Below are positions 4,575 to 30,982 of a stretch of DNA of 64,000 nucleotides, piece by piece. Each line of letters opens with the position of its first letter. Position 1 is the stretch's first letter. The position numbers were made by a program, and so were the translations under genes. The stretch covers positions 18,071 to 82,070 of the forward strand of contig JAFZKY010000037.1 in NCBI GenBank assembly GCA_017551725.1, in the 5' to 3' direction. Below the pieces are notes generated by a model. It was not told the DNA's origin and did not search any database. It saw only the letters and a program-made list of their open reading frames with translations. This DNA is from Bacteroidales bacterium (lineage in GTDB: Bacteria; Bacteroidota; Bacteroidia; Bacteroidales; WCHB1-69).

Positions 4575-4582
4575 CAAAGATA
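4575..4582 (-). promoter_or_regulatory. Bacteroidota -7 box (TATCTTTG on the minus strand) upstream of gyrB
   Basis: The plus strand reads CAAAGATA, which is TAnnTTTG on the coding strand, about 28 nt upstream of the gyrB ATG. Confidence 0.5.
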
Positions 4583-4687
4583 CGAAAAAAATTGGTTTTT
4601 CCGTATCTTTACCAGTATAAAAAATGCTGTCTTAAAACTTGTCCGGACAAGTGTCCAAACGGGAGTGTGGACAAGGCTTTTGCGGGC

Positions 4688-7339: not shown

Positions 7340-7362
7340 CTAAAAACTTTTAATTATTAACT

Positions 7363-8920: not shown

Positions 8921-8925
8921 ATAAT

Positions 8926-8975
8926 GGGTTTGTAGGGTTTGTAATGTTTATAATGTTCGTAAGGTTTGTAAGGTT
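8926..8975. repeat. 9-nt-period degenerate tandem repeat (GGGTTTGTA-like, about 5.5 copies)
   Basis: Reads GGGTTTGTA GGGTTTGTA ATGTTTATA ATGTTCGTA AGGTTTGTA AGGTT, directly upstream of the kamD start (8920). Confidence 0.8.
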
Positions 8976-10024: not shown

Positions 10025-10033
10025 TTTAGTTTG

Positions 10034-10120
10034 CGGAGAGGGCGAGATTCGAACTCGCGGATAGGTTTCCCCATCGACAGTTTAGCAAACTGTTGGTTTC
10101 AGCCACTCACCCACCTCTCC
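10034..10120 (-). tRNA. tRNA-Ser (anticodon GCU)
   Basis: Hand-folded cloverleaf. Acceptor GGAGAGG/CCTCTCC; anticodon arm ACAGT-TTGCTAA-ACTGT; long variable arm GATGGG-GAAA-CCTATC; T arm GCGAG-TTCGAAT-CTCGC. CCA is not encoded. Confidence 0.9.
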
Positions 10121-14852: not shown

Positions 14853-14892
14853 GGTAATGGTTTTATTAAAAGTTAATGTTAAACAATCGATT

Positions 14893-17157
14893 CTATGGCT
14901 CCAAATACAGTCTCACCGTCTTCGCAGACGCGTCCACCGTCTGGTTTTTCACCCGTCCCCGGCCCTGTATCTGTACACGGTAGCCGGCCCGCGTCAGCTC
15001 GGCCACGGCATCGGAGGCCAGCATATTGCGCACATCCGGCATCTTGTCCTGCTGCTTAAATGCCCATCCTTGCAGTTGGGGCTGCGGCTCGCCCTTGGTT
15101 TTCACGGAGATCATGTAGCGGCTTTGCGCATCCGTGACCGTGGTATCGTACCCCATCTCATGCAGCAACACGTTGAAATAGCGTTTCTCCACCGGCTCAA
15201 TCCTGGGAATGGGCTGCCGTTCGAACTTGGTGATGGAACGGGTGGCTCCGAAATTATGGCTGTTCATGATGCCCCGGGCGATTTTCCCAAACAGATCCAC
15301 CGCCACCTCACTGTGTTGCAACACATTATACATATATATGACAGCCGTGTATTTGGGATTCTCCTTCGGAAAATAGCCACAGAAGGAAACGGCGTTGCGG
15401 TCATATACATACTGGCCTGTCTTTTCGTCCCACACGTCGCGGGTACCCGTCTTGCCGGCAAACGGGCAGGTGGAGTCCTTGTAGCGGCGTCCCGTACCGT
15501 AACGTCCCCACACCACGCTGTCCAGATATGCCCTGGCCTTCTGCACGATCGTGTCCGAGACAAATTGTTCCATCACGACCTCCGGCTCAAACGTGCGGAC
15601 CGTATCGTACGTGTTAGTGATGTATTTCACAATGAAAGGCTTCATCATCTTGCCGTTGTTGGCGATGGCGTTGTAGTACATCAGCGTACGCAGCACCGGC
15701 ATGGTGAATCCGGCTCCGAAGCACACGGCATAGTAGTTGTCGAAACGCCCGTCGTTGCGGATGGCTGCCGGCAGGATCGGGCCGAGTTGTGTCTGCACTG
15801 TGTCGAAGAAGCCGAACTTGGCGAGCTGCTTGCGGTATTCGGAGAAATGGCCCATCCCATACGCCTTGAAAATCATCGAAGCCACCCCGATGTTGGAGGA
15901 GCGCTGGAAGATCTCATTCGAGAGGCCCGGGGTCTCACCGTGAACCTTGCTGTCGCTCTTGGCTTTTTCGATATATCTGCCCGACTTCGTCGGAACCCGG
16001 AACGTGTGGTTGAACATGGGAAAATGCGCGGTGTCAACAGGCGTCCGCTCAAAGTAGGCCAGCAGCGAGGCCAGTTTGAACGTGGAGCCCGGCTCCACCT
16101 TGGCATTGAGGGCATACTCCATGCTCTCGGTGTAAGTCTGCCCGTCGGAGGAGGCGCGGCGCAGGTTGGAGATGGCCTTGATGGCGCCCGTCTCCGTCTC
16201 CATGACGATGACACAACCCCAGTCGGCACCCAGTTCTACCAACTTGCGGTGCAGCTCGTTATGCACCACATTCTGGATATCCAGGTTCAGCGTGGTGTGG
16301 ATATTCATGCCGTCCACGGGTTCAATCTGCTCGTTGAAAGGCACTTTGGCCTTGTTGATTTCAAGATATTTCTTACTACCCTGCACACCGCCCAGGATGC
16401 TGTCCATAATATATTCCAACCCGTAGGCGTTCCCCACCGCATTCATGCCCAAGGTGCGGCGAGCCATCTCCCCATACGGGTTCACCCGCACGGAGGTGGG
16501 CACGCAGTTCAGATAACCGTAGTACTTCTTCGGACGTAGCTGCTCGGTCTCCTTGTCCATCACCTTGCGGGTCAAAAACGGGAGATTGCGTATGTATGAC
16601 GTGTCGAAGGAGGTCACCCAGCTCTTCTCATCGCGCAGATTGACCGTCAGGAGGGAGGCATACTGCTGCTTGCGGTAGTTGTTCTTGAAGAATGCGTAAT
16701 ACTCTTGCTCGGTTTTGGGGTAACGGTCGTGGAAGCGCTGATAGAAGCTCTTCGCCAGATTGTGCAACAGCGTTTCCACTTCCTCCTTGGTGTAACGATT
16801 GGTGTTGTCGTACTCCTTCGCGAACTTCTTCCCGTCGAAGGCCACCTCAAACACCGTGTAGTTGCCCATCAGGAGGCGGCCCTGGTCGTCCAGGATGTCG
16901 CCCCGCTCAGGCTGCAGCGGGTTGGCCAGGATGTAGCAGCGGCAGTCCGACTCTTCCTTCTCCTTCCAATTCGGATCCGTCGTGTCCACGCATTTTGACG
17001 ATTTACCCGTGCTGATACCCCTCTCGAAAAACGAAAGGTAGCATATCTGCCCGAGGCAGAATATGCCGAACAACAGCATCAGAAAGAACACGACCGCCAT
17101 TCTGACTCTGCTCACACCGCCCTCGCGGCTCTTCTTATTCTTCTGAGTGGTCTGCAT
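14893..17157 (-). CDS. ftsI: Penicillin-binding protein, class B transpeptidase (FtsI/PBP3-like)
   Basis: 754 aa with an N-terminal membrane anchor and the transpeptidase motifs STFK, SSN and KTGT, in dcw context. Confidence 0.9.
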   Translation of the reverse strand: MQTTQKNKKSREGGVSRVRMAVVFFLMLLFGIFCLGQICYLSFFERGISTGKSSKCVDTTDPNWKEKEESDCRCYILANPLQPERGDILDDQGRLLMGNYTVFEVAFDGKKFAKEYDNTNRYTKEEVETLLHNLAKSFYQRFHDRYPKTEQEYYAFFKNNYRKQQYASLLTVNLRDEKSWVTSFDTSYIRNLPFLTRKVMDKETEQLRPKKYYGYLNCVPTSVRVNPYGEMARRTLGMNAVGNAYGLEYIMDSILGGVQGSKKYLEINKAKVPFNEQIEPVDGMNIHTTLNLDIQNVVHNELHRKLVELGADWGCVIVMETETGAIKAISNLRRASSDGQTYTESMEYALNAKVEPGSTFKLASLLAYFERTPVDTAHFPMFNHTFRVPTKSGRYIEKAKSDSKVHGETPGLSNEIFQRSSNIGVASMIFKAYGMGHFSEYRKQLAKFGFFDTVQTQLGPILPAAIRNDGRFDNYYAVCFGAGFTMPVLRTLMYYNAIANNGKMMKPFIVKYITNTYDTVRTFEPEVVMEQFVSDTIVQKARAYLDSVVWGRYGTGRRYKDSTCPFAGKTGTRDVWDEKTGQYVYDRNAVSFCGYFPKENPKYTAVIYMYNVLQHSEVAVDLFGKIARGIMNSHNFGATRSITKFERQPIPRIEPVEKRYFNVLLHEMGYDTTVTDAQSRYMISVKTKGEPQPQLQGWAFKQQDKMPDVRNMLASDAVAELTRAGYRVQIQGRGRVKNQTVDASAKTVRLYLEP

Positions 17158-17575
17158 CTTTATAATTGTCCTTTTTTTCTTTCTTTTTGAACAAATGACG
17201 TTTGCGGGTATCCGCCGGCTTCTTCATCCGGATGGTGAAATTATGGTTGTTGTCAAACACAAAACCTCTATCCAACAGCTTCTGGATGAGAACTTTATTC
17301 TCCTCATAGGGGATATACTGGTTGTTGGCCTTCAGCTTGCTGACCTCCTGGCGATAGACGCTTTCGAGGCGCGCCACCTTCTTCTTCTTATTGGAGATGC
17401 TCTGCTCGCTGACCACCAGGGCGGTGACCAGCACGAGCACGAACAGGACATACAGGTACCACGGACGCATCTGCCGGCTGAGCAGGAACTCGCCGCCAAA
17501 CACGTTCTTCAAGGTTGAGAGCACCCGTTTCGAATTCCGGCTCTCAGGGTTTTCGATATTCGTCGTGGTATCCAT
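17135..17575 (-). CDS. FtsL-like small bitopic division protein
   Basis: 146 aa with a single TM helix (WYLYVLFVLVLVTALVV) followed by a coiled-coil-like segment. Sits between rsmH and ftsI. Confidence 0.5.
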   Translation of the reverse strand: MDTTTNIENPESRNSKRVLSTLKNVFGGEFLLSRQMRPWYLYVLFVLVLVTALVVSEQSISNKKKKVARLESVYRQEVSKLKANNQYIPYEENKVLIQKLLDRGFVFDNNHNFTIRMKKPADTRKRHLFKKKEKKDNYKDADHSEE

Positions 17576-18485
17576 GGGGTGTTACAATTATCTTTTCGGC
17601 GACGCGCAGTTTGGCGCTGCGGGCGCGGGGGTTAATGGCTATTTCTTCGAGGTCCGGGACGATGGCTTTGCGGGTGACGGCCTTGAACGGCGAGAGCGGG
17701 TTCCCGTAGAAATCCTTCTCCACCTCGCCCGACAGGTTGCCCGAGCGCATCACATTCTTCACCATCCTGTCTTCCAGGGAATGGTAGGCGATGACGACCA
17801 GCCGCCCGCCTTCTTTGAGCGCCTCGGCGGTCTGGCCCAGCATGATTTCCAGGACTTCCATCTCCTTGTTGACCTCGATACGGAGAGCCTGGAAAATCTT
17901 GGAAAGGTATTTGTTCTCCCGTCCGTGGGGAAGGCAAGGCTTCAACGCCTCCGCCAGCTGGAAGGTGGTCTCGATGGCGGCATCTTCGCGCGCCCGCACA
18001 ATCTGGCGGGCCAGGCGGCGGCCTTCCGACAACTCCCCGTATGTAAAGAAGATACGGCTGAGTTGTGCTTCATCGTAACGGTTCACCACATCATGGGCCG
18101 ACAGGTCCGAGTCCATGTTCATGCGCATATCCAAAACGCCGTCGCGGCTGTATGAGAAGCCCCGGTCGGCGGTGTCGATCTGATGGGAGGAGATGCCCAG
18201 GTCGGCCAAAATGCCGTCCACGGGATAGGCTTTGTGATATTTGAGGAAGCGGGTGAGATTCTTGAAGTTGGATGGCACGAAGCAGAAGCGCGGATCGTCG
18301 ATGAGGTTCGCCTTGCTGTCCGCGTCCTGGTCGAAGGCAATCAGGCGGCCTTCGGGCGAAAGCCGTTCCAGAATGGCCCGCGAGTGCCCGCCCCCGCCGA
18401 AGGTCACATCTACATACGTGCCCGCCGGGTTGGTCACCAGGTAGTCCACCGAAGTCTGCAGCAGCACCGGGTTATGATACTCCAT
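17544..18485 (-). CDS. rsmH: 16S rRNA (cytosine1402-N4)-methyltransferase
   Basis: HNPVLL...DVTFGGGGHS...DLGISSHQID are the canonical RsmH/MraW motifs. Confidence 0.95.
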   Translation of the reverse strand: MEYHNPVLLQTSVDYLVTNPAGTYVDVTFGGGGHSRAILERLSPEGRLIAFDQDADSKANLIDDPRFCFVPSNFKNLTRFLKYHKAYPVDGILADLGISSHQIDTADRGFSYSRDGVLDMRMNMDSDLSAHDVVNRYDEAQLSRIFFTYGELSEGRRLARQIVRAREDAAIETTFQLAEALKPCLPHGRENKYLSKIFQALRIEVNKEMEVLEIMLGQTAEALKEGGRLVVIAYHSLEDRMVKNVMRSGNLSGEVEKDFYGNPLSPFKAVTRKAIVPDLEEIAINPRARSAKLRVAEKIIVTPHGYHDEYRKP

Positions 18486-18957
18486 TCCCGTCCTCCTTTC
18501 CTTCGTTGAGCTGGCCGAGATGGATTTCCTCGTTCAGTTTCTCCAAATCCTCCGGCTCCATGTCGAACTTCTCATGGTAACGGGAGCTGTTCCAAATCTC
18601 GATCTGTCCGTTGTCCAGCAGCAGAACAATCTCCTTGCTGATCTTGTACTGATCCATCATGGGCCTGGGCACCACGATTCTGTCCTGAGCGTCGCACTCC
18701 ACACAGGCCGTGTTGCGCAGGAAGGCGTTGCGATAACGCTTCACCCGGGTGAGGTTACGGTCAAGGGAATTCAGGAAGTCCATCTGCTCCTGGTAGGCCT
18801 TCACCGACCAGAGCGTGATGTACTCGCCAAAGCCGTGCGTGACGTAGAATACGCGACGCTCGTCCTCCGGCAGGGCACGCAAAAGCGCCGTCGGCAACTT
18901 CAGCCGTCCGCTCTTCTCGATGGACACTTCCCAATATCCGTAATCCTGACTTGGCAT
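18472..18957 (-). CDS. mraZ: Transcriptional regulator MraZ
   Basis: 162 aa from ATG 18957, with duplicated SpoVT/AbrB-like halves (GRLKLP ... DRIVVPRPM). First gene of the dcw cluster. Confidence 0.88.
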   Translation of the reverse strand: MPSQDYGYWEVSIEKSGRLKLPTALLRALPEDERRVFYVTHGFGEYITLWSVKAYQEQMDFLNSLDRNLTRVKRYRNAFLRNTACVECDAQDRIVVPRPMMDQYKISKEIVLLLDNGQIEIWNSSRYHEKFDMEPEDLEKLNEEIHLGQLNEGKEDGNGVS

Positions 18958-18978
18958 TTTTTCACTCTTTAGATGTGC

Positions 18979-18986
18979 CAAAAATA
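18979..18986 (-). promoter_or_regulatory. -7 box (TATTTTTG) upstream of mraZ
   Basis: CAAAAATA on the plus strand, 22 nt upstream of the mraZ ATG. Confidence 0.45.
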
Positions 18987-19054
18987 TATTTTTTTCAAAT
19001 TCTTTTCCATAAAACCGATAGAAAAAGTTATTAACATCCTTATTTTTACATAAA

Positions 19055-19071
19055 ATACTGATTATCAGTAT
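19055..19071. promoter_or_regulatory. Perfect 8-1-8 palindrome ATACTGAT-T-ATCAGTAT (candidate operator)
   Basis: Lies in the mraZ / plug-gene divergent region. Its half-site ATTATCAGTAT recurs at 19177-19187, and AATTATC(A/G) recurs at about 19133 and 19206. Confidence 0.3.
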
Positions 19072-19294
19072 GGAAATTTTTGGAAACAATCATATCACTA
19101 CACTATTTATAAACATTAAAATATTGATAAACCGATAATTAGAATAAAGATACATAGTATAAAAATCAACTTGTTAATTATCAGTATTTTAAAATAAAAG
19201 ATATGAATTATCATTGTTCATAAACCTATTTTCAAGGGTATTATTTCGGAGTTTTTTGGAAAAAAATGGAAAACCGTGGATAATCTTTTAATAT

Positions 19295-19302
19295 TATCTT
19301 TG
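19295..19302 (+). promoter_or_regulatory. -7 box TATCTTTG upstream of the DUF5103 gene
   Basis: Lies in the context TTATCTTTGCACC, 19 nt upstream of ATG 19321. Confidence 0.5.
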
Positions 19303-19320
19303 CACCACATAATACACACG

Positions 19321-20592
19321 ATGATGAAACGAGTACTTTTCCCCATCCTGATGACGGTCGTATGCCTCGCCACCTTTGCCCAGCCGGACCTGACGCAGAT
19401 CCGCATGGAGGACTGGGTTTACGTAAAGGGTATCAAAAGCGTCACGATACAGGCCACCGACCTGCCGCTGAGCGATCCTATCATGGAGTTGAACGGCGGG
19501 GGCATCACGCTCACCTTCGATGACCTTGAGGAGGAGTCCCGCTACCTGAAATACACCATCATCCACTGCACGCACGACTGGAAGCCGTCGGACATGAACC
19601 CGATCGAGTACATTGACGGTTTCCTGGAGGACAACATTGAGACCTACAACTACTCTTTCAACACGGTGACCCACTACATGCAGTACCGACTGGATTTTCC
19701 CACCGAGAACATGCGTCCCACCCGCTCGGGCAACTACATCCTGTTCGTGTATGACGACTCGCCCGAACAGCCCATCCTCACGCGGCGTTTCATGGTGGCG
19801 GAAAACAATCCCGCCGGCATCCACGGCAACGTACACTCCTCGTCCGTCATCAACGACCGCTTCACCCACCAGGAGGTGGACTTCACTGTGACCACAGGCT
19901 CGTATGTCATCCGCGACCCCATCATGACCGTCCACGCCACCATCAAGCAGAACGGGCGCTGGGACAACGCCATCTACAGCCTCACCTACCGGTCGGGGTT
20001 CCCCGGCGAGCTCAACTTCGACTTTGACGACGGGCGCAACACCTTCCCCGGCGGAGCCGAGTTCCGCACATTCGACATCAGCACCCTCCGTTCCAACGCC
20101 GACCGCATCGTGGGCATCACCTACGAACACCACCAGAACCAGGCCTACGTGCTGCAGGACGATGCCCGTCCCTTCGGGGCCTACGAGTCGCGCAACACGC
20201 TGAACGGCGCCTGCCTCTACCACAACGCCGACATGCGCAACGACTTCTCGGAAGACTACGTGAACACCCATTTCACCCTCAAGAGCAACTTCCCGTTCCA
20301 GGATGGCGACGTGTATGTCTTCGGCCAGCTCACCGATTGGCGCATCCTCCCCGAAGCGAAACTCCACTTCAACGCGGACTACAACTTCTGGGAAACGGAC
20401 TTCTTCATCAAGCAGGGCTTATACAATTATCAATATGTATATGTGCCGAAAGGCAAAAACACCATCGACGCCACCTACATCGAGGGCAGCCATTTCGAGA
20501 CCCGCAACCAATACACCATCCTGCTCTATTTCCACGAAGAGGGCACCTCCTACGACAAGCTCATCGGTGTGGGCCATGTGAAAATGCTGTAA
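19321..20592 (+). CDS. DUF5103 / type IX secretion system plug-like protein
   Basis: 423 aa from ATG 19321 with a signal peptide (MMKRVLFPILMTVVCLATFAQ). The family assignment is from memory of T9SS_plug_1st/DUF5103 proteins and was not verified. Confidence 0.5.
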   Translation: MMKRVLFPILMTVVCLATFAQPDLTQIRMEDWVYVKGIKSVTIQATDLPLSDPIMELNGGGITLTFDDLEEESRYLKYTIIHCTHDWKPSDMNPIEYIDGFLEDNIETYNYSFNTVTHYMQYRLDFPTENMRPTRSGNYILFVYDDSPEQPILTRRFMVAENNPAGIHGNVHSSSVINDRFTHQEVDFTVTTGSYVIRDPIMTVHATIKQNGRWDNAIYSLTYRSGFPGELNFDFDDGRNTFPGGAEFRTFDISTLRSNADRIVGITYEHHQNQAYVLQDDARPFGAYESRNTLNGACLYHNADMRNDFSEDYVNTHFTLKSNFPFQDGDVYVFGQLTDWRILPEAKLHFNADYNFWETDFFIKQGLYNYQYVYVPKGKNTIDATYIEGSHFETRNQYTILLYFHEEGTSYDKLIGVGHVKML

Positions 20593-20630
20593 CAGGATGT
20601 GTTTCAGTCTCCCTTTTCCCATAAAAAGCG

Positions 20631-20638
20631 TATTTTTG
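20631..20638 (+). promoter_or_regulatory. -7 box TATTTTTG upstream of the S9 peptidase gene
   Basis: GTATTTTTGCC, 57 nt upstream of ATG 20695. Confidence 0.4.
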
Positions 20639-20694
20639 CCGCATCATCAAACACAACGTATATTCAAATAACACAACAAATAACATCTTTTTAC

Positions 20695-22875
20695 ATGAAA
20701 AAAATACTCTTGCTCACCCTCATGCTGACCGCCACCATACTCTCTTTCGGTCAGGCCAAGAAAATCACCATTGAAGAAATCTGGGACAAATACTACTTCA
20801 CCCCCAGAGGCGTGCCGGGCTACACGGCCATGCCCAACAGCGACTATTACACCACCGTCTCGCGGGCCGGCATCGAGCGCTACAGCTTCGCCACCGGCGA
20901 GCAGGTGGACATGATCCTGACCAACGCCGACCTCAATCGTCTCAGCGGAGGCTCCGTCAACATCAGCAAGGTAAGCGGCTATGAGTTTTCCTCTGACGAG
21001 AAGAAGATGATGATTGCCGTGGACGAGGAGAGCATCTGGCGCCGCTCCACCCTGGCCTTCTACTATGTTTATGATAGAGAAAACAAGACCCTGCAACTGG
21101 TGGCTGACACCAACACCAAGCTGCATTTCGCCTTCCTCTCCGAAGATGGCCAGAAGGTGCTCTTCGCCCGCGACTGCGACCTCTTCTACCAGGACATGGC
21201 CACCGGCAAGATCACGCAGATCACCCGCGACGGACAGGAAAACGCCATCCTCAACGGCTATGCCGACTGGGTGTATGAAGAGGAACTGGACATGTCGAGT
21301 GCCGCCTCCTGGTCGCCCGACGGCAGCAAGATCGCCTTCCTGCGCTTCGACCAGCGCCGTGTGAAGGAGTACAACTTCGCCCTCTATGACAACCTCTACC
21401 CCACCGACTTCAAATACAAATACCCGAAGGCCGGCGAGGACAACTCCCTGGTGGACGTTTACATCTACGACCTCGCCGCCCAGCAGCTCACCAAAGTGGA
21501 TTTGGGTGACAACAGCAACTGCTACTTCCCGCGTGTCTATTGGATGCCCAACAGCCAGGAGGCCGTCATCCTCAAGCTCAACCGCCACCAGAACCAGCTG
21601 GATTTCATCCGTTACAACACCGTCACCAAGCAGCAGGACATCGTCTATACCGACAAGAACGACAAATGGCTGGACGTGACCGACAACTACTATTTCCTGA
21701 AAGACGGCAAGACGATGATCGTGACCTCCGAGCGCGACGGTTTCAACCATATATATAAGGTAACGTTCGGCGGCGAGATCAAGCAGCTGACCTCCGGCAA
21801 CTGGGAAGTGAACGAGATCCAGTATGTGAACGAAGCCAAGAAACAGATTTACTACCTCTCGAACGAGAGCGGCGTGCTGAACCGCGACCTCTACGTCATC
21901 AACTTCGACGGCAAGAAGAAGGCGCTCATCAGCAGCGGCGACGGCTGGAACCAGACCTCGTTCAGTCCCAACGGCAACTTCTACCGCAACCAGTACTCCA
22001 ACCTCAACACGCTGCCGATTTACACCATCCGCGACGCCAAGGGCAAGGAGCTGCGCGTGCTCAACGACAACAAGAACGTGAAAGAGACGATGGGCAAATA
22101 CGGCTTCGTGGACCGCGAAATCATACACTTCACCACGGACGACGGCACCGAGCTGTACGGCTGGATGATGAAGCCGGCCAATTTCAACCCCAACAAGCGC
22201 TATCCGGTGATGATGACCTGCTACGGCGGTCCGGGCAGCCAGCAGGTGATGAACGCCTACAGCAGTGCGTACGACCTCGCCTTCTACCAGATGCTGGCGC
22301 AGCACGGCTACATCTGCGTGTGCGTGGACGGGCGCGGCACGGCCACGAGGGGCGACGCTTTCAAGAAGGTCATCTACCAGCAGATGGGCAAGTACGAGGC
22401 CATCGACCAGATTGCCGCCGCCAACTGGCTGAAGAAGCAATCGTACGTGGACGGCGACCGCATCGGCATCTGGGGCTGGAGCTTCGGCGGCTATCTCTCC
22501 GCATTGTCGCTGTTCCGCGGCGAAGGCGCCTTCAAGATGGCCATCTCCGTGGCACCGGTCACCAACTGGCGCTACTACGACAACATCTACACCGAGCGGT
22601 TCATGCGCACCCCGCAGGAGAACCCCGACGGCTACGACCTCAACTCGCCCACCACGTATGCCAAGGACCTCAAGGGCAAATACTTGCTCATCCACGGCAC
22701 TGCCGACGACAACGTGCACTTCCAGAACGCCATGGAGTTGGTGAAGGCGCTGAACGAGGCCGGCGTGGAATACGACCAGTTCTTCTTCCCCAACAAGAAC
22801 CACTTCATCATGGGCGGCAACACCCGCACATATCTGTACAACAAGCTGGCGAAGTATATTTTGGAGAATTTGTAA
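20695..22875 (+). CDS. S9B-family dipeptidyl-peptidase IV-like serine peptidase
   Basis: 726 aa from ATG 20695 with a signal peptide and a DPPIV N-terminal propeller region. Has the nucleophile elbow GWSFGGY, and Asp (HGTADDNVH) and His (NKNHF) in catalytic-triad-like positions. Confidence 0.85.
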   Translation: MKKILLLTLMLTATILSFGQAKKITIEEIWDKYYFTPRGVPGYTAMPNSDYYTTVSRAGIERYSFATGEQVDMILTNADLNRLSGGSVNISKVSGYEFSSDEKKMMIAVDEESIWRRSTLAFYYVYDRENKTLQLVADTNTKLHFAFLSEDGQKVLFARDCDLFYQDMATGKITQITRDGQENAILNGYADWVYEEELDMSSAASWSPDGSKIAFLRFDQRRVKEYNFALYDNLYPTDFKYKYPKAGEDNSLVDVYIYDLAAQQLTKVDLGDNSNCYFPRVYWMPNSQEAVILKLNRHQNQLDFIRYNTVTKQQDIVYTDKNDKWLDVTDNYYFLKDGKTMIVTSERDGFNHIYKVTFGGEIKQLTSGNWEVNEIQYVNEAKKQIYYLSNESGVLNRDLYVINFDGKKKALISSGDGWNQTSFSPNGNFYRNQYSNLNTLPIYTIRDAKGKELRVLNDNKNVKETMGKYGFVDREIIHFTTDDGTELYGWMMKPANFNPNKRYPVMMTCYGGPGSQQVMNAYSSAYDLAFYQMLAQHGYICVCVDGRGTATRGDAFKKVIYQQMGKYEAIDQIAAANWLKKQSYVDGDRIGIWGWSFGGYLSALSLFRGEGAFKMAISVAPVTNWRYYDNIYTERFMRTPQENPDGYDLNSPTTYAKDLKGKYLLIHGTADDNVHFQNAMELVKALNEAGVEYDQFFFPNKNHFIMGGNTRTYLYNKLAKYILENL

Positions 22876-23203
22876 AAGTAAATTATTTCCATTGCAGCTG
22901 ACCATAGGTCGCCACAACCAACGGTCTACAACCAAAAAGTGTTGGCCAGATCAGACAACAGTATCGTTTATTATAGTAGCACCTCCGCGCCGCAAGGGAC
23001 TTGTTCCCCTTCTATTGTAGGGGTGGCTGCAAGCCAGGGTAGTATTAAGGTATTTTATTCCTTATACATCTACCCCGCCCTTCGGGCACCCCTTCTTAAA
23101 AAAAGAAGGGGAATATTGGGGATGCCCGCACAGGTGTGCGGACAACGGGTCAACTACTATATCATTACCTTTTTATTAGAACTTATGATGAGAAATTATA
23201 TTA
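22844..23203 (+). repeat. Left copy of a ~360-nt direct repeat (last 32 nt of the peptidase CDS plus 328 nt non-coding)
   Basis: Hand alignment to 27645-28003 gives 14 substitutions and 2 small indels. Confidence 0.9.
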
Positions 23204-23408
23204 TAGACAGGAAGCAAATTCATCTATCATTAATTTCGACTCGAGAAGGAATTATAACCTGATCAATTGCCAAAATTCCTACCTCCCGTAACCAGTTTTC
23301 TGATAACGCCTATCAACAAACAGTATAAAAATATTCCACTCACCCTTCATTTTTTTATGTTATTTAAAACAAAACTCTCATCAGCATCAACTACATTTTT
23401 TAATATAG

Positions 23409-25640
23409 TCACTTCCTCCAGTGTCTTATTATAGCAACATCTTTAACGACAGAGGCCTCACCCTTGTAGATAATATCAATGCGATAATCAGCGGCATCAG
23501 TGTATATATATAGTGGAATGACTTCTTCATTTCTGGGTTTGTAATCAAAATGCAGATGAATAGATGTGCCTGAGAGGTAATTGTCGGTGGGTAACAATGC
23601 ATCAGGTTTATCCAAGGGATAGATAGAAAACACAGGGTCTGCCATTACCAAGGTACGTGGCAAATCAATGCTAAGCGTGTTATCAGACTTTCGAATCCTT
23701 TGGATCAAACGTTTCCACCACGATGCTTGCTCGGCTGGATTATTTTTGAGTGGCGACACGCTGACGCCCTGGCGCAGAGTTCTTTGTAACTGTGCCGGTT
23801 CAAGTGAATACCTATTGAGATACTCTTTAAGTGCCTGTTTCTGTTGCTGGTTAAGCACTTCACATTCTCCTCGTTTTTTAGAAAGAGCGTGGTTCTTCTT
23901 ATAATCCACAGCATCAATCCAGCAAATGCGGTCGTCGGTCATAGCGATAGCACGGATGCGGGTGATGTCTTTATAGTTCTTGTCGGGATAACTCAATTCT
24001 ATGGTTCCTAAATCTGCTGTGGAATGAGGTTCGATAATGTTTGAGGCTTTGGGCACCTTGACCACATCATATTCATCCTTGTACATGTCCGTATAATGGA
24101 TGCAGAGGAAGACTCGTACATTCTCGAATCTCAAGTCGGAACGGTTATTGATGCTCACACGTACTGTGTAATTATCGTCCCAGAAAAGCCATTTCGATTT
24201 CGGGTCGACTAATACATCCAAATATGATTGTTCGAGTAATAGACTTTTAAAAGGTCCAAAGAGGTGTTCTTCGCAAAATTGCATATCAGAGAGCAACTCA
24301 TCATAAACACCTTGATTACCGCGGCGAAAGAAATGATTGTATATTTCTTTTTGACTCTCATCCAATTTACCTTTTTGGTTATAGTAAATTGCCTTTAAGA
24401 GATTGGGACTGAAGAGTCCATACCCTTCCATGGTGGAGGCATAGAGACGACGTAGATATTGTCCTTCCGGGGTTTTGGTTAGGTAATAGCGCATATTATA
24501 TGCATCAAGCATATCAGTGAGGTGTTCGGCTTGACGGGGGTACTCCACCGCAGCTTGATTGAACTTGAGGAGTGCGCTCCGCTCGTCGCCAAGTTGCTGA
24601 CAGATCAAGCCTTCAAGAACCAATGCAGGCGCAGTCCTATCAGGATAAAGTTTGTTATATTGTTGCAGGATATCAATAGCTGCCTTTTGATTGCTGTTCA
24701 AGGAATACATTCCATATAAAGTGTCATTGAGCAATTCGTCATGTATGTTATGGGACTCCGTTACAATATGATTTATACTGATGGTATTCATTGGTTGTGT
24801 CCCAGACACACTTCCGAGAATGAGTCCCAATGACTGCAGAAGCATAGCCTCTGAATTAGTGGGATATTTCTTTAAGATATTTTGGGTGTGGATGATGGCT
24901 TTGACAATATCTCCGGCATAGAGATCAAAGTATGCCTGATCTTTTTCGACACAAAGGCCATCATATTCCTGCATATATTTCTTGTAGATAGGAACATAGT
25001 ACTCTAAAAAATTGCGATACGCGAACCGTAATTTTTCAAGGTCTTCTCGTATCTTACCTTTCAATTCCCTATCCTTCTCGTAACTGGCAAAAGCTTCGTC
25101 TATGGTTTTATTGGCATCACTGCCGGCTGCAATCTCGAACAAAGCAAAGGGGGCTTCATTCATCATGAGAGCGAGCCTCCCCCAATTAATATCCTTGGAC
25201 AAACTCTCACAACCTTGTGCCAAACTGCTCAACAACAACCATGTGTTGTCCATCTGCTCATACTGTTGCTGCAACTTGTAGGTGTATTCCAGAAGAGGGA
25301 ACAGTTTACATTTGGCTTCCAACACTTCTGGAGCAACACCGCTGTAATCTTGTCCTGCCATGTAGTCCAAAAAGTCGTCATAGTTTTCCGACCTCACTTG
25401 CGCTAATTCCATAGCATTAATGATTCGGATTGTTTGTTCAATGTCGTACGTAGTATTGGTTTGTTTATGGCTGCTAATCGCATTGTAGGCAGCAACAAAC
25501 TCCTCCATGGGCTTATATTGCTCTATATTGACATTGAGTAAATCATTAACAATGGATTGACGGCAACCACTAACGAGAACCACTAACAACAACAGAGTTG
25601 TAGTCAGCCAAAGAGTTGACGATTGAAAAACACGTTTCAT
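23409..25640 (-). CDS. Large lipoprotein of unknown function (helical/TPR-like N-terminal part, beta-rich C-terminal part)
   Basis: 743 aa with a lipoprotein signal LLLVVLVSG-C. No nucleotide-binding or catalytic motif recognised. Confidence 0.65.
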   Translation of the reverse strand: MKRVFQSSTLWLTTTLLLLVVLVSGCRQSIVNDLLNVNIEQYKPMEEFVAAYNAISSHKQTNTTYDIEQTIRIINAMELAQVRSENYDDFLDYMAGQDYSGVAPEVLEAKCKLFPLLEYTYKLQQQYEQMDNTWLLLSSLAQGCESLSKDINWGRLALMMNEAPFALFEIAAGSDANKTIDEAFASYEKDRELKGKIREDLEKLRFAYRNFLEYYVPIYKKYMQEYDGLCVEKDQAYFDLYAGDIVKAIIHTQNILKKYPTNSEAMLLQSLGLILGSVSGTQPMNTISINHIVTESHNIHDELLNDTLYGMYSLNSNQKAAIDILQQYNKLYPDRTAPALVLEGLICQQLGDERSALLKFNQAAVEYPRQAEHLTDMLDAYNMRYYLTKTPEGQYLRRLYASTMEGYGLFSPNLLKAIYYNQKGKLDESQKEIYNHFFRRGNQGVYDELLSDMQFCEEHLFGPFKSLLLEQSYLDVLVDPKSKWLFWDDNYTVRVSINNRSDLRFENVRVFLCIHYTDMYKDEYDVVKVPKASNIIEPHSTADLGTIELSYPDKNYKDITRIRAIAMTDDRICWIDAVDYKKNHALSKKRGECEVLNQQQKQALKEYLNRYSLEPAQLQRTLRQGVSVSPLKNNPAEQASWWKRLIQRIRKSDNTLSIDLPRTLVMADPVFSIYPLDKPDALLPTDNYLSGTSIHLHFDYKPRNEEVIPLYIYTDAADYRIDIIYKGEASVVKDVAIIRHWRK

Positions 25641-25740
25641 AACACAACCTGAAGTATTATTTCTTCCACAAAAGATTACTTTTATCTTGATAATTATTAA
25701 ATATAACAGTGAAAAAACTTATTGTAACAATACTATTTTG

Positions 25741-26496
25741 TTATTTTGATTCCACAGCATCTAACTTGTCCACAAATCGCATAAACATAAAAATAAACAC
25801 TATTTGCCAAATGTCAAGTAACGCATAAAATATTTGTCCAAGCACTGGTAATCCAAGTGCTAATAGTAACGAACACATAATAACAGATACGGCACCAACA
25901 AGCAAAAGTCCTGAAACATATACTTTCAAATAAGTTCCTAATGCTTGCACTTTTTTCCAAAGATCAAAATTGTGTATTTGAAATGCCGACCATTTTTTCT
26001 CCATTTCTTTTGCCATTACAAAAGAGCATACGATACAGGCAACAAAAAGAAATAACCCAATCACCCCTATTATATAAAACACTATCGATTCCGTAGGCAA
26101 GAAATCTAATAAGAAACGAATAATAGTCGCCGAAGTCAGCAAACACATTAATGCTTTGGACGTCACAATTCTCGCTTCATCAGGCAAATAATCATTGAAC
26201 TTGTTCAACTTAAACAATACAAGTATGTATAATATTCCAACAAATTCATCCGCGAATAGACCAAGGAAAGACCAGGAATGAAATTGTATTTTATTACCAT
26301 AAATGAAATCGTTTAATGTTATGATATCACCATTGGCAATATTCAATATGATTTGGCATATAAGAAAAAATATACCTAAACCGCAACAAATGGAAATCAG
26401 CGTTCCATCAAAAACATCCTTTACAAAACAGTGCCCACATTCAGGGCAATTAAGAGAGTATTCAGGGGCCTCCGTCCCACATTTTTGACATTTCAT
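25741..26496 (-). CDS. Zinc-ribbon-fused polytopic membrane protein
   Basis: 251 aa. N-terminal CxxC...CxxC (MKCQKCGTEAPEYSLNCPECGHCF) is followed by about 6 hydrophobic helices. Confidence 0.65.
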   Translation of the reverse strand: MKCQKCGTEAPEYSLNCPECGHCFVKDVFDGTLISICCGLGIFFLICQIILNIANGDIITLNDFIYGNKIQFHSWSFLGLFADEFVGILYILVLFKLNKFNDYLPDEARIVTSKALMCLLTSATIIRFLLDFLPTESIVFYIIGVIGLFLFVACIVCSFVMAKEMEKKWSAFQIHNFDLWKKVQALGTYLKVYVSGLLLVGAVSVIMCSLLLALGLPVLGQIFYALLDIWQIVFIFMFMRFVDKLDAVESK

Positions 26497-26546
26497 AATA
26501 TTTATCTTTTAAAAAAAATACTGACACTTGATGACTTCATCTCACA

Positions 26547-26930
26547 CTAAAGTCCTTTATAAATATTCCAAAACCAATTCACTATAATGACTAGAATGAT
26601 GAAAAACGTTATTATAGGATGTGCTATTTTCGCCATGATATTATGCATCATGTGTGTGTTTTTAAAATAGTCCACCCACGAAAGGATAAGGAAAACCGGA
26701 ATTAGGATACATAATATGACAGAAAGTGGGTTAATGTTCAATGCTCCCTTGATATCCATAGCCATTAATGCATGAATAACCCGCACCCCGCCACAACCAG
26801 GACAAGGTAATCCAGTAATGCGATGAAACGGGCAAAAAGGGTGGAGAGGAATCTTGCTCTCCACCTTTATCCAAAAAAAAGAGAAAACAATAATTACTGT
26901 AAATAATAATTGTTTACGACATTCCTTCAT
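26547..26930 (-). CDS. DUF2752-family membrane protein
   Basis: 127 aa with CPFHRITGLPCPGCGGVR, the DUF2752 signature as I remember it. Its ATG overlaps the TM2 gene stop (TAATG). Confidence 0.7.
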   Translation of the reverse strand: MKECRKQLLFTVIIVFSFFWIKVESKIPLHPFCPFHRITGLPCPGCGGVRVIHALMAMDIKGALNINPLSVILCILIPVFLILSWVDYFKNTHMMHNIMAKIAHPIITFFIILVIIVNWFWNIYKGL

Positions 26931-27271
26931 TAAAACATCAGAGATTCGTTAAACAATTTGAAATTATAATCATAGGTTTTTTGTTTTATTGAGCACCAAT
27001 CAATAATGGTCCAAATGCCGCATCCACCACAAGTCAGTAGCTTAGCAACACCAAGTCCTGTATCCCCTAACATAAAACGATCCACCCCATAACTCCCTAA
27101 AAAAATAGAAACAATAAGCATGGTTGTTGGATTCTTGAACGATGTGGATGCGACTTGTACATCTTTCCCTTCAGGCAAGGAGGCGAGCTTCTCTTTGATC
27201 ATAACCCATTGTTGAACTGTAAAGCATTCTTTGTTTGCCATCACAAACATGTCAATTTTTGATTGATCCAT
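26930..27271 (-). CDS. TM2-domain membrane protein
   Basis: [36 protein letters not shown] is a typical TM2 domain. The start was chosen at ATG 27271 ([15 protein letters not shown]); an in-frame ATG at 27394 would add 41 aa. Confidence 0.75.
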
Positions 27272-27579
27272 ACAAAATCCCTTATCCGTGTCGGGCACAA
27301 CTTTTAGTTGCACGGCTCGATGCTGAAAGACACTCACGAAAAAGTGGAGCCATCCTTTTCGCCTCATCCTCAATGGTTGGGCTTGGACTCCCATGTATAA
27401 ACAAGATAAGGACTATGAATTGACCCCACCTGTAGTATGTCGTATTTAACGAATACATATCAAGTGAGCCACTATTCCCTATTCTGTGTTTATACTATAG
27501 CGAAGTGTCCAAGTTCACCATTGACAGAATAAACGAAAAGCACTCTTTTCGGCAAACCAATACTTTTGGTTTACGAGTG

Positions 27580-27587
27580 CAAAAATA
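27580..27587 (-). promoter_or_regulatory. -7 box (TATTTTTG) for the island operon
   Basis: GTGCAAAAATACC on the plus strand, about 300 nt upstream of ATG 27271. Confidence 0.35.
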
Positions 27588-27644
27588 CCATTTTTTCTTT
27601 AAAAGAATACAAAAAAATGTCTTTTTTAGTAAAATTACAGATTC

Positions 27645-28003
27645 AGCTGGCGAAGTACATTTTGGAGAATTTGTAAAAGTAAATTATTTCCATTGCAGCT
27701 GACCATAGGTCGCCACAGCCAACGGCCTACAACCAAAAAGTGTTGGCCTGATCAGACAACAGTATCGTTTATTATAGTGGCACCTCCGCGCCGCAAGGGG
27801 ACTTGTTCCCCTTCTATTGTAGGGGTGGCTGCAAGCCAGGGTAGTAATATGGTTTTTTATTCCTTATACATCTACCCCGCCCTTCGGGCACCCCTTCTTT
27901 AAAAGAAGGGGAATTTTGGGGATGCCCGCACGGATGTGCGGACAGTGGGTCAACTACTATATCATTACCTTTTTATTAGAACTTATGATGAGAAATTATA
28001 TTA
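27645..28003 (+). repeat. Right copy of the ~360-nt direct repeat, carrying an orphan 3' tail of the peptidase gene
   Basis: It starts AGCTGGCGAAGTACATTTTGGAGAATTTGTAA (LAKYILENL*), and no upstream coding sequence is attached. Confidence 0.9.
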
Positions 28004-28014: not shown

Positions 28015-28061
28015 TAAAAAAAGCTATCAGCCAATGACAAGTAGCCAATAGCTAATAGCTT
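28015..28061 (-). terminator. Intrinsic terminator of the 201-aa gene
   Basis: On the minus strand, AAGCTATTAGC ... GCTGATAGCTT forms a roughly 11-bp stem followed by TTTTTTTATTT. Confidence 0.5.
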
Positions 28062-28085: not shown

Positions 28086-28691
28086 TTACTCCTTTTTCGG
28101 CAGTCTTTCGCGAACTTCCGCCAAGAATTCTTCCGTATCGATGCCGATAGCCTTGGCCTCCTCCACGAGAACAGCCTCCTCTTCGGGCGTGATGACTCCG
28201 TCTTCCAGGATGGCGGCCACTTTCGTGTCGAGCGTGTTGAGCAGGCTCTCTTTCTCGGTAGTGTCTTCCGGAGACTCCTGAAGTTTCTTGCCCATCTTGA
28301 TCAGCACCGGGAGGTTGGCCAGCGTGCCGAGCTTCTCAAGTGCTTTGCCGCTCATCTCCTTCGCCTTGTCGGCGGCATCGCCCACCTTTTCAGCGAATTT
28401 GCTGTCCTTGATGTCCTCCACCATGTCTTTGGCTTTGTCGCGGACATTACCGGCCACATCCGCCACCTTCCCGCCAAACTCGGAGTTCTTGACATCTTCC
28501 ACCATGTCTTTGGCCTTGTCGCGGACATTACCGGCCACATCCGCCACCTTTCCGCCAAATTCGGAGTTCTTGACATCTTCCACGGTGTCTTGCACTTTTT
28601 CTTTAACCTCTTTCGAAGTTTTTCTGAACAAATCCAAAAACTTTTGGACGCAAGATTTCTTTTCAGAATCTGAATTGTAATTTTCTGCCAT
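28086..28691 (-). CDS. Hydrophilic repeat protein (LEA/CsbD/YtxH-like stress-protein flavour), function unknown
   Basis: 201 aa, highly charged, with 27-aa tandem repeats DVKNSEFGGKVADVAGNVRDKAKDMVE. Confidence 0.65.
   Translation of the reverse strand: MAENYNSDSEKKSCVQKFLDLFRKTSKEVKEKVQDTVEDVKNSEFGGKVADVAGNVRDKAKDMVEDVKNSEFGGKVADVAGNVRDKAKDMVEDIKDSKFAEKVGDAADKAKEMSGKALEKLGTLANLPVLIKMGKKLQESPEDTTEKESLLNTLDTKVAAILEDGVITPEEEAVLVEEAKAIGIDTEEFLAEVRERLPKKE
28407..28595. repeat. 81-bp in-frame tandem repeat, about 2.3 copies
   Basis: Units at 28407-28487 and 28488-28568, with a partial unit at 28569-28595 and a few substitutions between units. Confidence 0.85.
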
Positions 28692-28716
28692 AATTTTGAA
28701 GTTTTAATTTGAAAAG

Positions 28717-28724
28717 CAAAAATA
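28717..28724 (-). promoter_or_regulatory. -7 box (TATTTTTG) upstream of the 201-aa gene
   Basis: GCAAAAATAC on the plus strand, 26 nt upstream of ATG 28691. Confidence 0.45.
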
Positions 28725-28780
28725 CATTTTTTTCAGAAATAAAGAAGCCATCACCCCATACGCAGGTTAATAAAAAAGAT

Positions 28781-28788
28781 TATCTTTG
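28781..28788 (+). promoter_or_regulatory. -7 box TATCTTTG upstream of the S46 peptidase gene
   Basis: TTATCTTTGCACC, 26 nt upstream of ATG 28814. Confidence 0.5.
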
Positions 28789-28813
28789 CACCTCACAAAC
28801 TAACATCATCAAT

Positions 28814-30982
28814 ATGCGAAAATCTATACTTCTTACCCTTTTGTTCGCAGCCATTTTCAGCATCGCCCGCGCCGACGGCGGCATGTGGCTGCCCCTGTTC
28901 CTGAACTACAACGAGGCTGAAATGCAGTCGCTTGGCTTTAAACTGACCGCCGAGGACGTCTATAGCGTGAACCACCACAGCATGAAGGATGCCGTGATGC
29001 TGTTCGGCGGCGGCTGCACCGGCGAGCTCATCTCCTCCCAAGGCCTGGTGCTCACCAACCACCACTGCGGCTACTCCTACGTGCAGTCGCACAGCACCAT
29101 GGAGCAGAACCACCTGCAGAACGGTTTCTGGGCCAAGGACAAAAGCGAGGAAATCCCCATGAAGGGCCTCACCGTCACCTTCCTGGTCTATATGAAGGAC
29201 GTTACCGAGCAGGTGCTGGAGGATGTCAACGACGACATTGAAGAGGCCGAGCGAGCCATCATGGTGAAAAACAGCATGGAAAAGGTGATCAAGGAGGCCA
29301 CCAAAGGCACGCACTACAAAGCCACCATCAAGCCCTTCTACTACGGCAACCAGTATTTCATGTTCGTCACGGAGACCTACAGCGATGTGCGTCTGGTGGG
29401 CGTGCCGCCCGAGAGCATCGGCAAGTTTGGCGGCGACAGCGACAACTGGATGTGGCCGCGCCACACGGGCGACTTCTCCCTCTGGCGCATCTACACCGAC
29501 AAGGATGGCAACCCGGCCCAGTATTCAGCAGACAACATCCCGATGAGACCGAAGAAATACTTCCCCATCTCCATCAAGGGCATTGAGGAGAACGACTTCA
29601 CCCTGGTATTCGGCTATCCCGGCTCCACGCAGCAGTTCCTGCTCTCCGACGGCGTGGATGTGGTGGCCAACGTGCAGAACCCCATCGCCATCGACGCTCG
29701 CACCATCCGCCTCGACGCCATGAAGCGCCAGATGAACCTCGACCCGCGCATCCGCCTCATGTACTCCGCCAAGGCCAACAGCATCTCCAACGGCTGGAAG
29801 AAATGGCAGGGCGAGAGCAAGGGCATCCGCGAGTGCAACGTCATCGCCAAGAAACAGGCCCAGGAGGCCGATTTCCAACAATGGGTCAACGCCACCCCCG
29901 AACGTCAGATGAAATACGGCAACCTCCTCAACGACATGCACCGCGTGTATGAGCGCTACGCCGAGCATGTCAACGCGAGCACCTTCATCAGCGAATGTAT
30001 CTTCGGCCCTGAAATCATCGGCAACGTGCTCCATCCCTACTATCGGCTGCTCGCGTATCCGGCAATGCAGGGCGAGAACGGCACGGTAGAGAACAACCGC
30101 GAGAAACTGCTCCAGAGCAACCAATCGTTCCGCAACAGCTATTGCCCGGCCATCGACAAGGAGGCCTTTATAGAATTGTTTACCTATTATTTCACCAAAG
30201 AGAAAAAAGAGCTCATCCCCGGCGAACTGCACAAATACGTGCTGGACGAGGCCACCGTGCGGCAGATGATGACCGACCTCTGGGACAAGCAGGCCACCAC
30301 CGCGCCCTATATCACCGACAATGATAAATTCATCCAGTTTGTCAAGAAGGCGAAACCCAGCCAGATAGCGAAAACCGCCAACTCAGAGCTGGCCAAGATC
30401 TACCGTGCCGTTTACGACCAATATGCTCAGGTGCGGAACCAATATTCGGTGGAGCACAGCCAGCTGAACGGCTACTACCGCACCTACGTCAAGGCCCTGA
30501 TGGAGAAGGACACCGCCCGCGTGTTCTATCCGGACGCCAACCTGACGCTGCGCGTGACCTACGGCCAGGTGAAGGGCTTTGAGCCCGCCGACGGCGTACA
30601 ATACAACTATTACACCACCTTGGACGGCATCATCCAGAAGGAGGATCCGGACGTGTATGACTACAAGGTGGATCCGAAGCTGAAACAGTTGTGGGAAGCA
30701 AAGGACTACGGGCGCTACGCCAACAAGAACGGCGAGTTGCCGGTGGCCTTCATCGCCAGCAACCACACCACGGGCGGCAACTCGGGCAGCCCGGTCATCA
30801 ACGCCAACGGCGAGCTCATCGGCACCAACTTCGACCGCGTGTGGGAAGGCACCATGAGCGACATCAACTACGACGTGAGCCGCTGCCGCAACATCAGCCT
30901 CGACGCACGCTATTTTCTGTTCATCGTCGATAAGTTCGCCAACGCGCACAACCTGATCGAAGAGATGGACATTGTGGAATAA
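28814..30982 (+). CDS. S46-family dipeptidyl-peptidase (DPP7/DPP11 type)
   Basis: 722 aa from ATG 28814. After the signal peptide it reads DGGMWLP, then CTGELISSQGLVLTNHHCG (His), then TTGGNSGSPV (Ser). The NFDRVWEG motif suggests the Arg-containing, acidic-P1 DPP11 type. Confidence 0.88.
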   Translation: MRKSILLTLLFAAIFSIARADGGMWLPLFLNYNEAEMQSLGFKLTAEDVYSVNHHSMKDAVMLFGGGCTGELISSQGLVLTNHHCGYSYVQSHSTMEQNHLQNGFWAKDKSEEIPMKGLTVTFLVYMKDVTEQVLEDVNDDIEEAERAIMVKNSMEKVIKEATKGTHYKATIKPFYYGNQYFMFVTETYSDVRLVGVPPESIGKFGGDSDNWMWPRHTGDFSLWRIYTDKDGNPAQYSADNIPMRPKKYFPISIKGIEENDFTLVFGYPGSTQQFLLSDGVDVVANVQNPIAIDARTIRLDAMKRQMNLDPRIRLMYSAKANSISNGWKKWQGESKGIRECNVIAKKQAQEADFQQWVNATPERQMKYGNLLNDMHRVYERYAEHVNASTFISECIFGPEIIGNVLHPYYRLLAYPAMQGENGTVENNREKLLQSNQSFRNSYCPAIDKEAFIELFTYYFTKEKKELIPGELHKYVLDEATVRQMMTDLWDKQATTAPYITDNDKFIQFVKKAKPSQIAKTANSELAKIYRAVYDQYAQVRNQYSVEHSQLNGYYRTYVKALMEKDTARVFYPDANLTLRVTYGQVKGFEPADGVQYNYYTTLDGIIQKEDPDVYDYKVDPKLKQLWEAKDYGRYANKNGELPVAFIASNHTTGGNSGSPVINANGELIGTNFDRVWEGTMSDINYDVSRCRNISLDARYFLFIVDKFANAHNLIEEMDIVE

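Follow-up and report, generated by a model that had tools for sequence, protein, structure and literature searches.

This study concerns a small group of four genes in a 64,000-nucleotide stretch of a contig from an uncultured rumen Bacteroidales bacterium (assembly GCA_017551725.1, contig JAFZKY010000037.1, positions 18,071 to 82,070; this whole stretch is called the window, and all positions refer to it). The window is part of scaffold_35 (272,682 bp) of ENA assembly ERZ28653494. The four genes lie between two core genes, one for a dipeptidyl peptidase of family S9 (DPP-IV) and one for a peptidase of family S46, and are bracketed by two long direct repeats, of which the left copy (L) overlaps the end of the DPP-IV gene and the right copy (R) precedes p201, a gene for a 201-aa protein (Table 1). 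Together, repeats and genes make up a horizontally acquired accessory islet without mobility functions of its own.

L and R are identical in 344 of 361 aligned columns (95.3%) and differ by 14 substitutions and two indels; the longest identical runs measure 59, 57, 49 and 45 nt. No third copy is present anywhere in the window. L starts 32 nt before the end of the DPP-IV gene if the stop codon (22873-22875) is counted, and R holds an orphan copy of this tail (27645-27676, ...LAKYILENL*) with no reading frame upstream. Repeat boundaries, kinds of differences, 32-nt overlap and orphan tail had all been described in an earlier sequence-only reading of the window, and the recomputed alignment agrees with that description. 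Decayed longer homology upstream of R was considered and ruled out, as stop codons and no similarity are found there. The repeated sequence, called H in the following, is the native intergenic sequence that separates the convergent genes for DPP-IV and p201. The terminator-like hairpin of p201 stands just outside R and thus the boundary 28003|28004 lies in neutral space between the convergent genes.

The DNA enclosed by the repeats is foreign in composition. Across 23.0-28.0 kb, the lowest stretch of the window, the G+C (GC) content is 0.32-0.44, whereas it is 0.54-0.62 in the flanks. GC at third codon positions is 0.31-0.45 in the four island genes as opposed to 0.82-0.87 in the genes for DPP-IV, the S46 peptidase, the type IX secretion system (T9SS) plug and p454. 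Hence the AT-richness of the enclosed 4.4 kb, which the sequence-only reading had based on spot counts, is a real step. This reading had further seen no integrase, transposase or relaxase, and domain searches of all four open reading frames (ORFs) with Pfam, NCBIfam, PHROGs and PADLOC found none either. Composition step and domain searches therefore agree with its picture of a foreign island lacking a recombinase.

The largest cargo gene encodes a lipoprotein of 743 aa whose N-terminal part is helical and TPR-like and whose C-terminal part is beta-rich. Its closest non-self homologues are 71-72% identical and most relatives 64% identical or less; a metagenome scan with the protein returned relatives at up to 64% identity only, in housekeeping contexts. 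The family is widespread in rumen Bacteroidales, where its members stand singly in housekeeping neighbourhoods of various kinds, and the island gene is a xenologue of this common single-copy family. The AlphaFold2 model of the protein is poor (predicted local distance difference test score 62). With this model, Foldseek against the PDB gave generic TPR matches only (query template modelling scores of 0.16 or below), from which no function can be assigned, and a PDB sequence search gave no match. The 251-aa membrane protein is nearly an orphan, the sole homologue found being 49% identical and located within an array of Zn-ribbon membrane proteins. Homologues of the TM2-domain protein have 113 aa, are 79-88% identical and are found beside DUF2752 genes in ordinary chromosomal contexts; the DUF2752 proteins of such pairs are 43-54% identical. 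TM2-DUF2752 is thus a conserved two-gene unit, present in genomes of 38-43% GC. To our knowledge, none of the families concerned (TM2, DUF2752, Zn-ribbon membrane protein, TPR lipoprotein) has a known function in bacteria. Most likely, the cargo alters the cell envelope.

Nothing in the cargo points to an element that moves by its own means. Beyond the four genes there is no further ORF of at least 100 aa. The same domain searches found no tyrosine or serine recombinase, DDE transposase or phage structural family among the four ORFs, and matches in PHROGs were limited to the TM2 protein, all to families of unknown function. A blastn comparison of the cargo DNA with 50,697 phage and 72,556 plasmid records gave no match, and exact look-ups of three of the cargo proteins return this locus only. 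The cargo ends carry no terminal inverted or direct repeats, the best end-to-end alignments scoring no better than shuffled sequence; the junctions show no microhomology between cargo ends and flanks, and there is no target-site duplication at the island. A transposon or insertion sequence unit was rejected, since terminal repeats, target-site duplication and transposase are all missing. No recombinase gene is found within about 10 kb on either side of the island, and the sole tRNA gene of the window is at 10033-10120. An integrase-bearing island, integrative and conjugative element, integrative and mobilisable element or prophage was likewise discarded: there is no recombinase gene, no tRNA or tmRNA target and no short att core, the repeats being 360 nt of resident sequence. 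PADLOC assigned no cargo protein to a defence family, which rules out a known anti-phage defence system. The cargo genes are xenologues of chromosomal genes found in ordinary settings in rumen Bacteroidales of lower GC. Judged by them, the cargo seems to be pieced together from envelope genes of such bacteria and does not look like a dedicated mobile element.

Table 1. Features of the islet and its surroundings (window positions)
Feature	Position	Strand	Remarks
DPP-IV / S9 peptidase gene, core	20599..22875	+	Pfam DPPIV_N 9e-92, Peptidase_S9 3e-56
Left homologous-recombination breakpoint interval	22504..22667	.	L184-type alleles upstream, empty-site (L001-like) alleles downstream
Left repeat L	22844..23203	.	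end of DPP-IV and 328 nt of convergent intergenic sequence
REP-like hairpin units, inverted pair, ~45 nt each	23005..23115	.	inside L; counterpart at 27807-27915 in R
Cargo, 4441 bp, four genes	23204..27644	-	GC 0.33-0.44
743-aa lipoprotein	23409..25640	-	signal peptide and lipobox ...LVSGC
251-aa membrane protein, N-terminal zinc ribbon	25741..26496	-	weak match to Pfam Zn_Ribbon_1
127-aa DUF2752 membrane protein	26547..26930	-	Pfam 4e-16
TM2-domain protein	26930..27271	-	Pfam 3e-18; 113 aa by homologues; ORF reaches 27394
Right repeat R	27645..28003	.	orphan DPP-IV tail plus intergenic part; hybrid alleles
Terminator-like hairpin of p201	28022..28053	-	just outside R
p201, 201-aa YtxH/YjbJ-like repeat protein, right neighbour	28086..28691	-
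S46 (DPP7-type) peptidase gene, core, right of hot spot	28709..30982	+	Pfam Peptidase_S46 4e-219

An arrangement of this kind, taken from a metagenome, could be an assembly duplication, a concern raised with the sequence-only reading. In detail, two intergenic strain variants might have been wrongly joined through an unrelated AT-rich contig; the metagenomic source and the 5% difference between the copies, which is typical of strain variants, would fit. Against this, two separate contigs of a second sample, assembled on its own (ERZ28653833), cover the left and the right junction at 100% identity, and a contig of the Logan assembly spans the whole cargo and continues into the repeat on either side. 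Cargo ends and flanks have no sequence in common through which they might have been misjoined. With exact look-ups, five contigs are reported for DPP-IV and five for p201, of which those shown carry the island and the others are listed as similar places. Because the junctions are reproduced in independent assemblies, the arrangement is real; we give an artefact hardly any credence and regard it as excluded in practice. In the Logan contig L082 (SRR12529216, positions 4472-4605) R alleles adjoin the left end of the cargo, where the window has L alleles; this contig does not close a circle.

The site without the islet exists in relatives. In a contig of a metagenome-assembled genome (MAG; L001) and in L180-L183, which stand for eight contigs from several samples, the order is DPP-IV, one copy of H, p201 and S46. 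L and R each align end to end with this single copy. The search for an empty site holding one repeat copy, which had been proposed as a check on the islet, was thus successful. The closest relative of the backbone is a different contig (L184), which is 99-100% identical to the window over 17.0-22.7 kb, from the dcw cluster to DPP-IV. It carries other cargo at the same site, another low-GC gene for an AAA_14/DUF4143 ATPase of 422 aa directly after the DPP-IV stop codon (L184:12182-13701). Just the last 40 nt of H are kept there, after the ATPase gene, and nothing is duplicated.

More distant relatives have yet other genes in the interval between DPP-IV and S46: a TIR-domain protein (L038), an SbcC-like ATPase together with AbiEi (L004), four RhuM paralogues (L041) or an extracytoplasmic function sigma factor (L016). 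In some of them the interval is empty. Cargo that differs between relatives or is missing altogether argues that the site is a hot spot at which cargo is swapped. By comparison of these contigs, the interval has the pattern of an integration hot spot between core genes as in PMC5635113, and genes of the defence type are present in it in relatives. It is also a useful marker locus, since the cargo is TIR, SbcC/AbiEi, RhuM, AAA_14 or envelope genes depending on the strain.

To which lineage each part of the locus belongs was determined in a four-way variant table in which the window is compared with L184 and with the empty-site lineage. Up to 22503, nearly all of the approximately 70 informative sites in DPP-IV are of the L184 type, with about ten exceptions. 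From 22668 to 22836 the alleles are of the empty-site type, closest to L001, with some 12 informative sites over 22668-22834; the left breakpoint therefore lies inside the DPP-IV gene. In the right flank, the identity of the window is 97-99% with L001 and L180 as against 90-93% with L184. The flanks of the islet are thus mosaic. The identity between the window and L180 is approximately 90% before 20.27 kb (14269-20265, with the dcw cluster and the T9SS-plug gene) and 96-98% from about 20266 on, and synteny with L001 and L180 stops after 32361, the end of an acyltransferase gene. Identity step and end of synteny indicate that the stretch from DPP-IV to p454 has a recombination history separate from that of the backbone. 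The allele switch in DPP-IV and the identities of the right flank argue that an L184-like backbone received, by homologous recombination in the flanks, a block that starts at about 22.6 kb, extends to at least 32.36 kb and includes both repeats and the cargo. The island thus reached the present genome by block import and not by a Campbell event, and the duplicative insertion is older and belongs to the donor lineage.

Traces of that older insertion are found in the repeats themselves. Alleles of a third type are confined to the stretch from 22846 (nt 3 of L) through the cargo to 27789 (nt 145 of R). The sites at 22833-22836, just upstream of L, are of the resident type, so that donor alleles stay inside the homology segment, with none reaching the flanking part of DPP-IV. 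From end to end, L is of the third type; its identity with the empty-site copy is 93.6%. R is a hybrid: nucleotides 1-145 group with L and the remainder with the empty-site allele, the switch lying between 27789 and 27796 (Fisher p=0.0045; permutation p approximately 0.026). In the first 145 nt, seven states are common to L and R against both empty-site alleles; from nt 152 onward, there are 11 columns in which R agrees with the empty-site allele and L stands alone. Changes unique to one copy are asymmetric, 14:2 (binomial p=0.004). In the first 147 nt, L and R differ at five sites only. Where they differ within the first 145 nt, one of the two always has the resident allele, L at 22948 and 22978 and R at 22917 and 22925. 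Resident alleles surviving in both copies are the patchwork expected from heteroduplex repair. A simpler reading, with a foreign left and a native right repeat, was dropped in favour of this mosaic once more empty-site alleles and L184 had been compared.

The repeats also contain structured DNA. A unit of about 45 nt occurs twice in L (23005-23049 and 23071-23115) and has the form CCCCTTCT-loop-AGAAGGGG with another GC hairpin after it. It is also found at intergenic sites in other rumen Bacteroidales (L022, L023, L028, L031, L049). This suggests a family of elements similar to repetitive extragenic palindromic (REP) sequences. The changes specific to L are mostly located in or next to the hairpin region (23045-23146). 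The minus strand of the repeat folds with z=-4.8, owing to the REP-like hairpins; an Rfam scan of 18-32 kb gave no relevant match at E<=1.

The interpretation of these results that we favour has two layers. The older one would belong to a lineage akin to the empty-site genomes: there, a circle consisting of the cargo and H', a diverged allele of H of about 360 nt, would have recombined once with the resident H, the crossover falling at approximately nt 145-152 of H. This Campbell-type crossover would duplicate H around the cargo and leave DPP-IV intact, and heteroduplex repair would then convert most of the 5' part of L to the H' type. More recently, the whole block (the last ~200-370 nt of DPP-IV, both repeats, the cargo, p201, S46 and p454) would have entered the L184-like backbone by ordinary flanking homologous recombination and replaced whatever this lineage had at the site. 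We hold this model, a single Campbell-type crossover with partial co-conversion underneath a block transfer, to be somewhat better than an even bet. Four traits that a single crossover predicts are observed: the duplication comprises exactly the homology segment, donor alleles stay within its edge, R is of the donor type in its 5' part and of the resident type in its 3' part, and the 3' part of L is of the donor type. The Campbell integration put forward in the sequence-only reading thus stands in part, through the hybrid R and the edge-confined alleles, and has to be modified in part, since the island arrived here by block import and the 5' part of L is not cleanly resident. Its prediction that recombination between the repeats would leave an intact peptidase gene holds. 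Identical runs of 59 to 45 nt remain, and thus RecA-type recombination could still delete the island.

Several points weigh against this model. A single crossover also predicts a resident 5' part of L, and this is seen at two sites only (22948 and 22978). Because the 5' part of L is mostly of the H' type, unlike in a clean Campbell event, the model needs co-conversion in addition. What we infer from the alleles is the circular donor, the single crossover and this co-conversion, and the presumed source arrangement, H' beside the cargo without duplication, was not found. The allele argument comprises about 20 informative sites and three reference haplotypes, two of them from empty sites. The pattern in L082 may be due to bubble popping by the assembler or to a real variant with homogenised repeats. 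Finally, an older duplication combined with two recombination tracts ending at 22844 and 27790 would look identical.

This last scenario deserves a closer look. Here the duplication would have arisen in place, by an accident of replication or repair, and the present mosaic would reflect only later recombination between strains, which exchanged the DNA on the left of 22844 and on the right of 27790. In its favour, recombination has clearly made the flanks mosaic, the first 147 nt of L and R contain just five differences, and no more than four or five mutations plus two recombination tracts are required. On the other hand, one tract must end within 10 nt of the left edge of the repeat by chance, the 14:2 asymmetry needs the right-hand tract as an extra assumption, and how the duplication itself came about is left unexplained. 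We therefore regard it as unlikely. Homology-facilitated illegitimate recombination would displace the resident tail. A linear donor with the 3' part of DPP-IV, H' and the cargo would form a homologous joint on the left, and its right end would join illegitimately just upstream of the resident tail, shifting this tail and H downstream. The mechanism is documented for linear DNA (PMC3240628) and has been proposed for displaced 3' ends (PMC5361080, PMC2935791); it needs no recombinase, and an orphan gene tail downstream of incoming DNA that bears a replacement tail is just what it produces. Yet it predicts a wholly resident R, whereas the first 145 nt of R hold the seven non-resident states shared with L. 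It likewise predicts donor alleles in DPP-IV, whereas the sites at 22833-22836 are resident and divergence begins at 22846. Microhomology is missing on the inspectable side of the 27644|27645 joint. Displacement is thus a rather improbable explanation of the locus.

The islet could also be a cis-mobilisable element (CIME) moved by a recombinase encoded elsewhere, comparable to the CIMEs of Streptococcus and the microcin H47 island of E.coli, with the repeats as long imperfect attL and attR sites. Long imperfect direct repeats, the missing recombinase, the 3' end of a protein gene as the site and the restoration of this gene would all fit, and the H47 island is a precedent (PMC3191183). Indeed, att-like direct repeats without recombination genes, the structure of H47- and CIME-like elements, are what the islet shows. 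Two other contigs, L032 and L069, likewise have small cassettes bracketed by duplicated DPP-IV tails whose end is the stop codon. However, the entire 360 nt are homologous to resident sequence, 328 nt of them non-coding, which would be needless for a site-specific system. The boundaries of the tail duplications vary (-32 nt here, -112 nt in L069, -231 nt in L032) with no common core visible, the nearest 10 kb or so on both sides are free of recombinase genes, and the cargo is seen at this locus only. Mobilisation in trans appears doubtful to us. A diversity-generating retroelement was rejected as the source of the differences between the repeats: no reverse transcriptase is present, and the differences, which lie mostly in non-coding DNA, are of every kind and show no adenine bias.

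The tail duplications in other contigs take different forms. L069, from a Saprospiraceae MAG, has three copies of the final ~117 nt of DPP-IV (6293-8935), and these copies bracket a ParE-type and HigB/HTH-IrrE toxin-antitoxin cassette; no integrase is visible on this 9.9-kb contig. In L032 (6723-8173) a full DPP-IV gene is followed by a gene for a lipoprotein of 156 aa and then by two DPP-IV fragments, 252 nt from mid-gene and a tail of 231 nt, at 86-91% identity. In three related MAGs, a different locus about 7 kb downstream of DPP-IV shows direct repeats some 130 nt long. They take in the final ~30 nt of a gene for a protein of 192-194 aa and bracket either this gene or the next ~1.1 kb (L021:18205-19547, L023:19221-20563, L031:19440-20683). 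A repeat of 418 nt downstream of DPP-IV in L008 turned out to be a tandem pair of paralogues and not a tail duplication.

The DPP-IV tail duplications in L032 and L069 hint at a broader possibility, namely that cassettes recurrently move in Bacteroidota without a recombinase, as circles of cargo plus a few hundred nucleotides from the 3' end of a conserved gene, preferably DPP-IV, which serves as a landing pad, and that these circles enter by single crossover and can leave again. If true, small cassettes would reuse conserved gene tails as landing pads, inserting and leaving without any recombinase. We consider this generalisation improbable at present, and the different boundaries of the tail duplications in L032, L069 and the window contribute to this low estimate.

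Some further observations concern the neighbouring genes and the rest of the window. Gene callers place the start of the DPP-IV gene at 20695 (726 aa). The p201 gene contains three tandem repeats of 81 nt (27 aa) at 28370-28612 with 64-78% identity, and the same stretch is the part of the right flank that diverges most from the relatives. The divergent mraZ operon is separated from the T9SS-plug gene by a short stretch of low GC (0.35-0.36) at 18750-19500, probably a promoter region that both share. On the minus strand, a giant ORF of 4081 aa (48976-61221) has the window's second low-GC patch (60.5-62 kb, GC 0.42) at its 5' end.

For most hot-spot islands without an integrase, movement is assumed to involve a double crossover in the core genes on either side, a process that leaves no scar. 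On the interpretation preferred here, the first entry of such a cargo into a hot spot would have left a record, and the locus would be a rare natural example: the 360-nt duplication with its hybrid distal copy would keep the trace of a single-crossover insertion, with the later block transfer layered on top. It would also mean that homeologous recombination at approximately 94-95% identity works in uncultured rumen Bacteroidales.

The islet can be compared with four known systems. With a Campbell-type integrant, whose laboratory analogue is the suicide plasmid, it shares direct repeats equal in extent to the homology segment, an intact target gene, a distal repeat that is a donor/resident hybrid, a single copy at the empty site, the lack of a dedicated recombinase and reversibility by recombination between the repeats. 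It differs in that the event would be a natural one with a homeologous segment of 95% identity, in that the proximal repeat is not a clean reciprocal hybrid, and in that the circular donor is a putative one.

Hot spots between core genes without genes of mobile elements have been described by Oliveira et al. 2017 (PMC5635113). As in the present case, one core-gene interval holds varied accessory or defence genes or none, the flanks show tracts of homologous recombination and there is no integrase. Flanking double crossover, however, leaves no 360-nt duplication; here an additional single-crossover event would be recorded. Displacement of C-termini gives orphan tails in rhs and type VI secretion system effector loci (PMC2935791, PMC5361080), and there, too, incoming DNA supplies a new 3' end of a gene whose old tail is orphaned downstream. 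In contrast to those loci, the tail in the islet encodes the same peptide and comes with no new toxin tip or immunity gene, its coding part amounts to 32 nt only, and R is hybrid rather than purely resident.

Among natural islands, the islet most closely resembles the microcin H47 island of E.coli, which has imperfect repeats of 148 and 144 bp and no integrase, and which is excised independently of recA at several blocks of identity, a site-specific function of the host having been proposed (PMC3191183). Both are small, lack integrase and excisionase, have unusually long imperfect direct repeats with several identity blocks in which recombination is possible, and have relatives with hybrid or single-copy empty sites. 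They differ in host phylum and cargo, and the repeats of 148/144 bp in H47 compare with 360 nt of resident sequence in the islet. Furthermore, mobility independent of recA has been shown for H47, whereas for the islet excision is a prediction.

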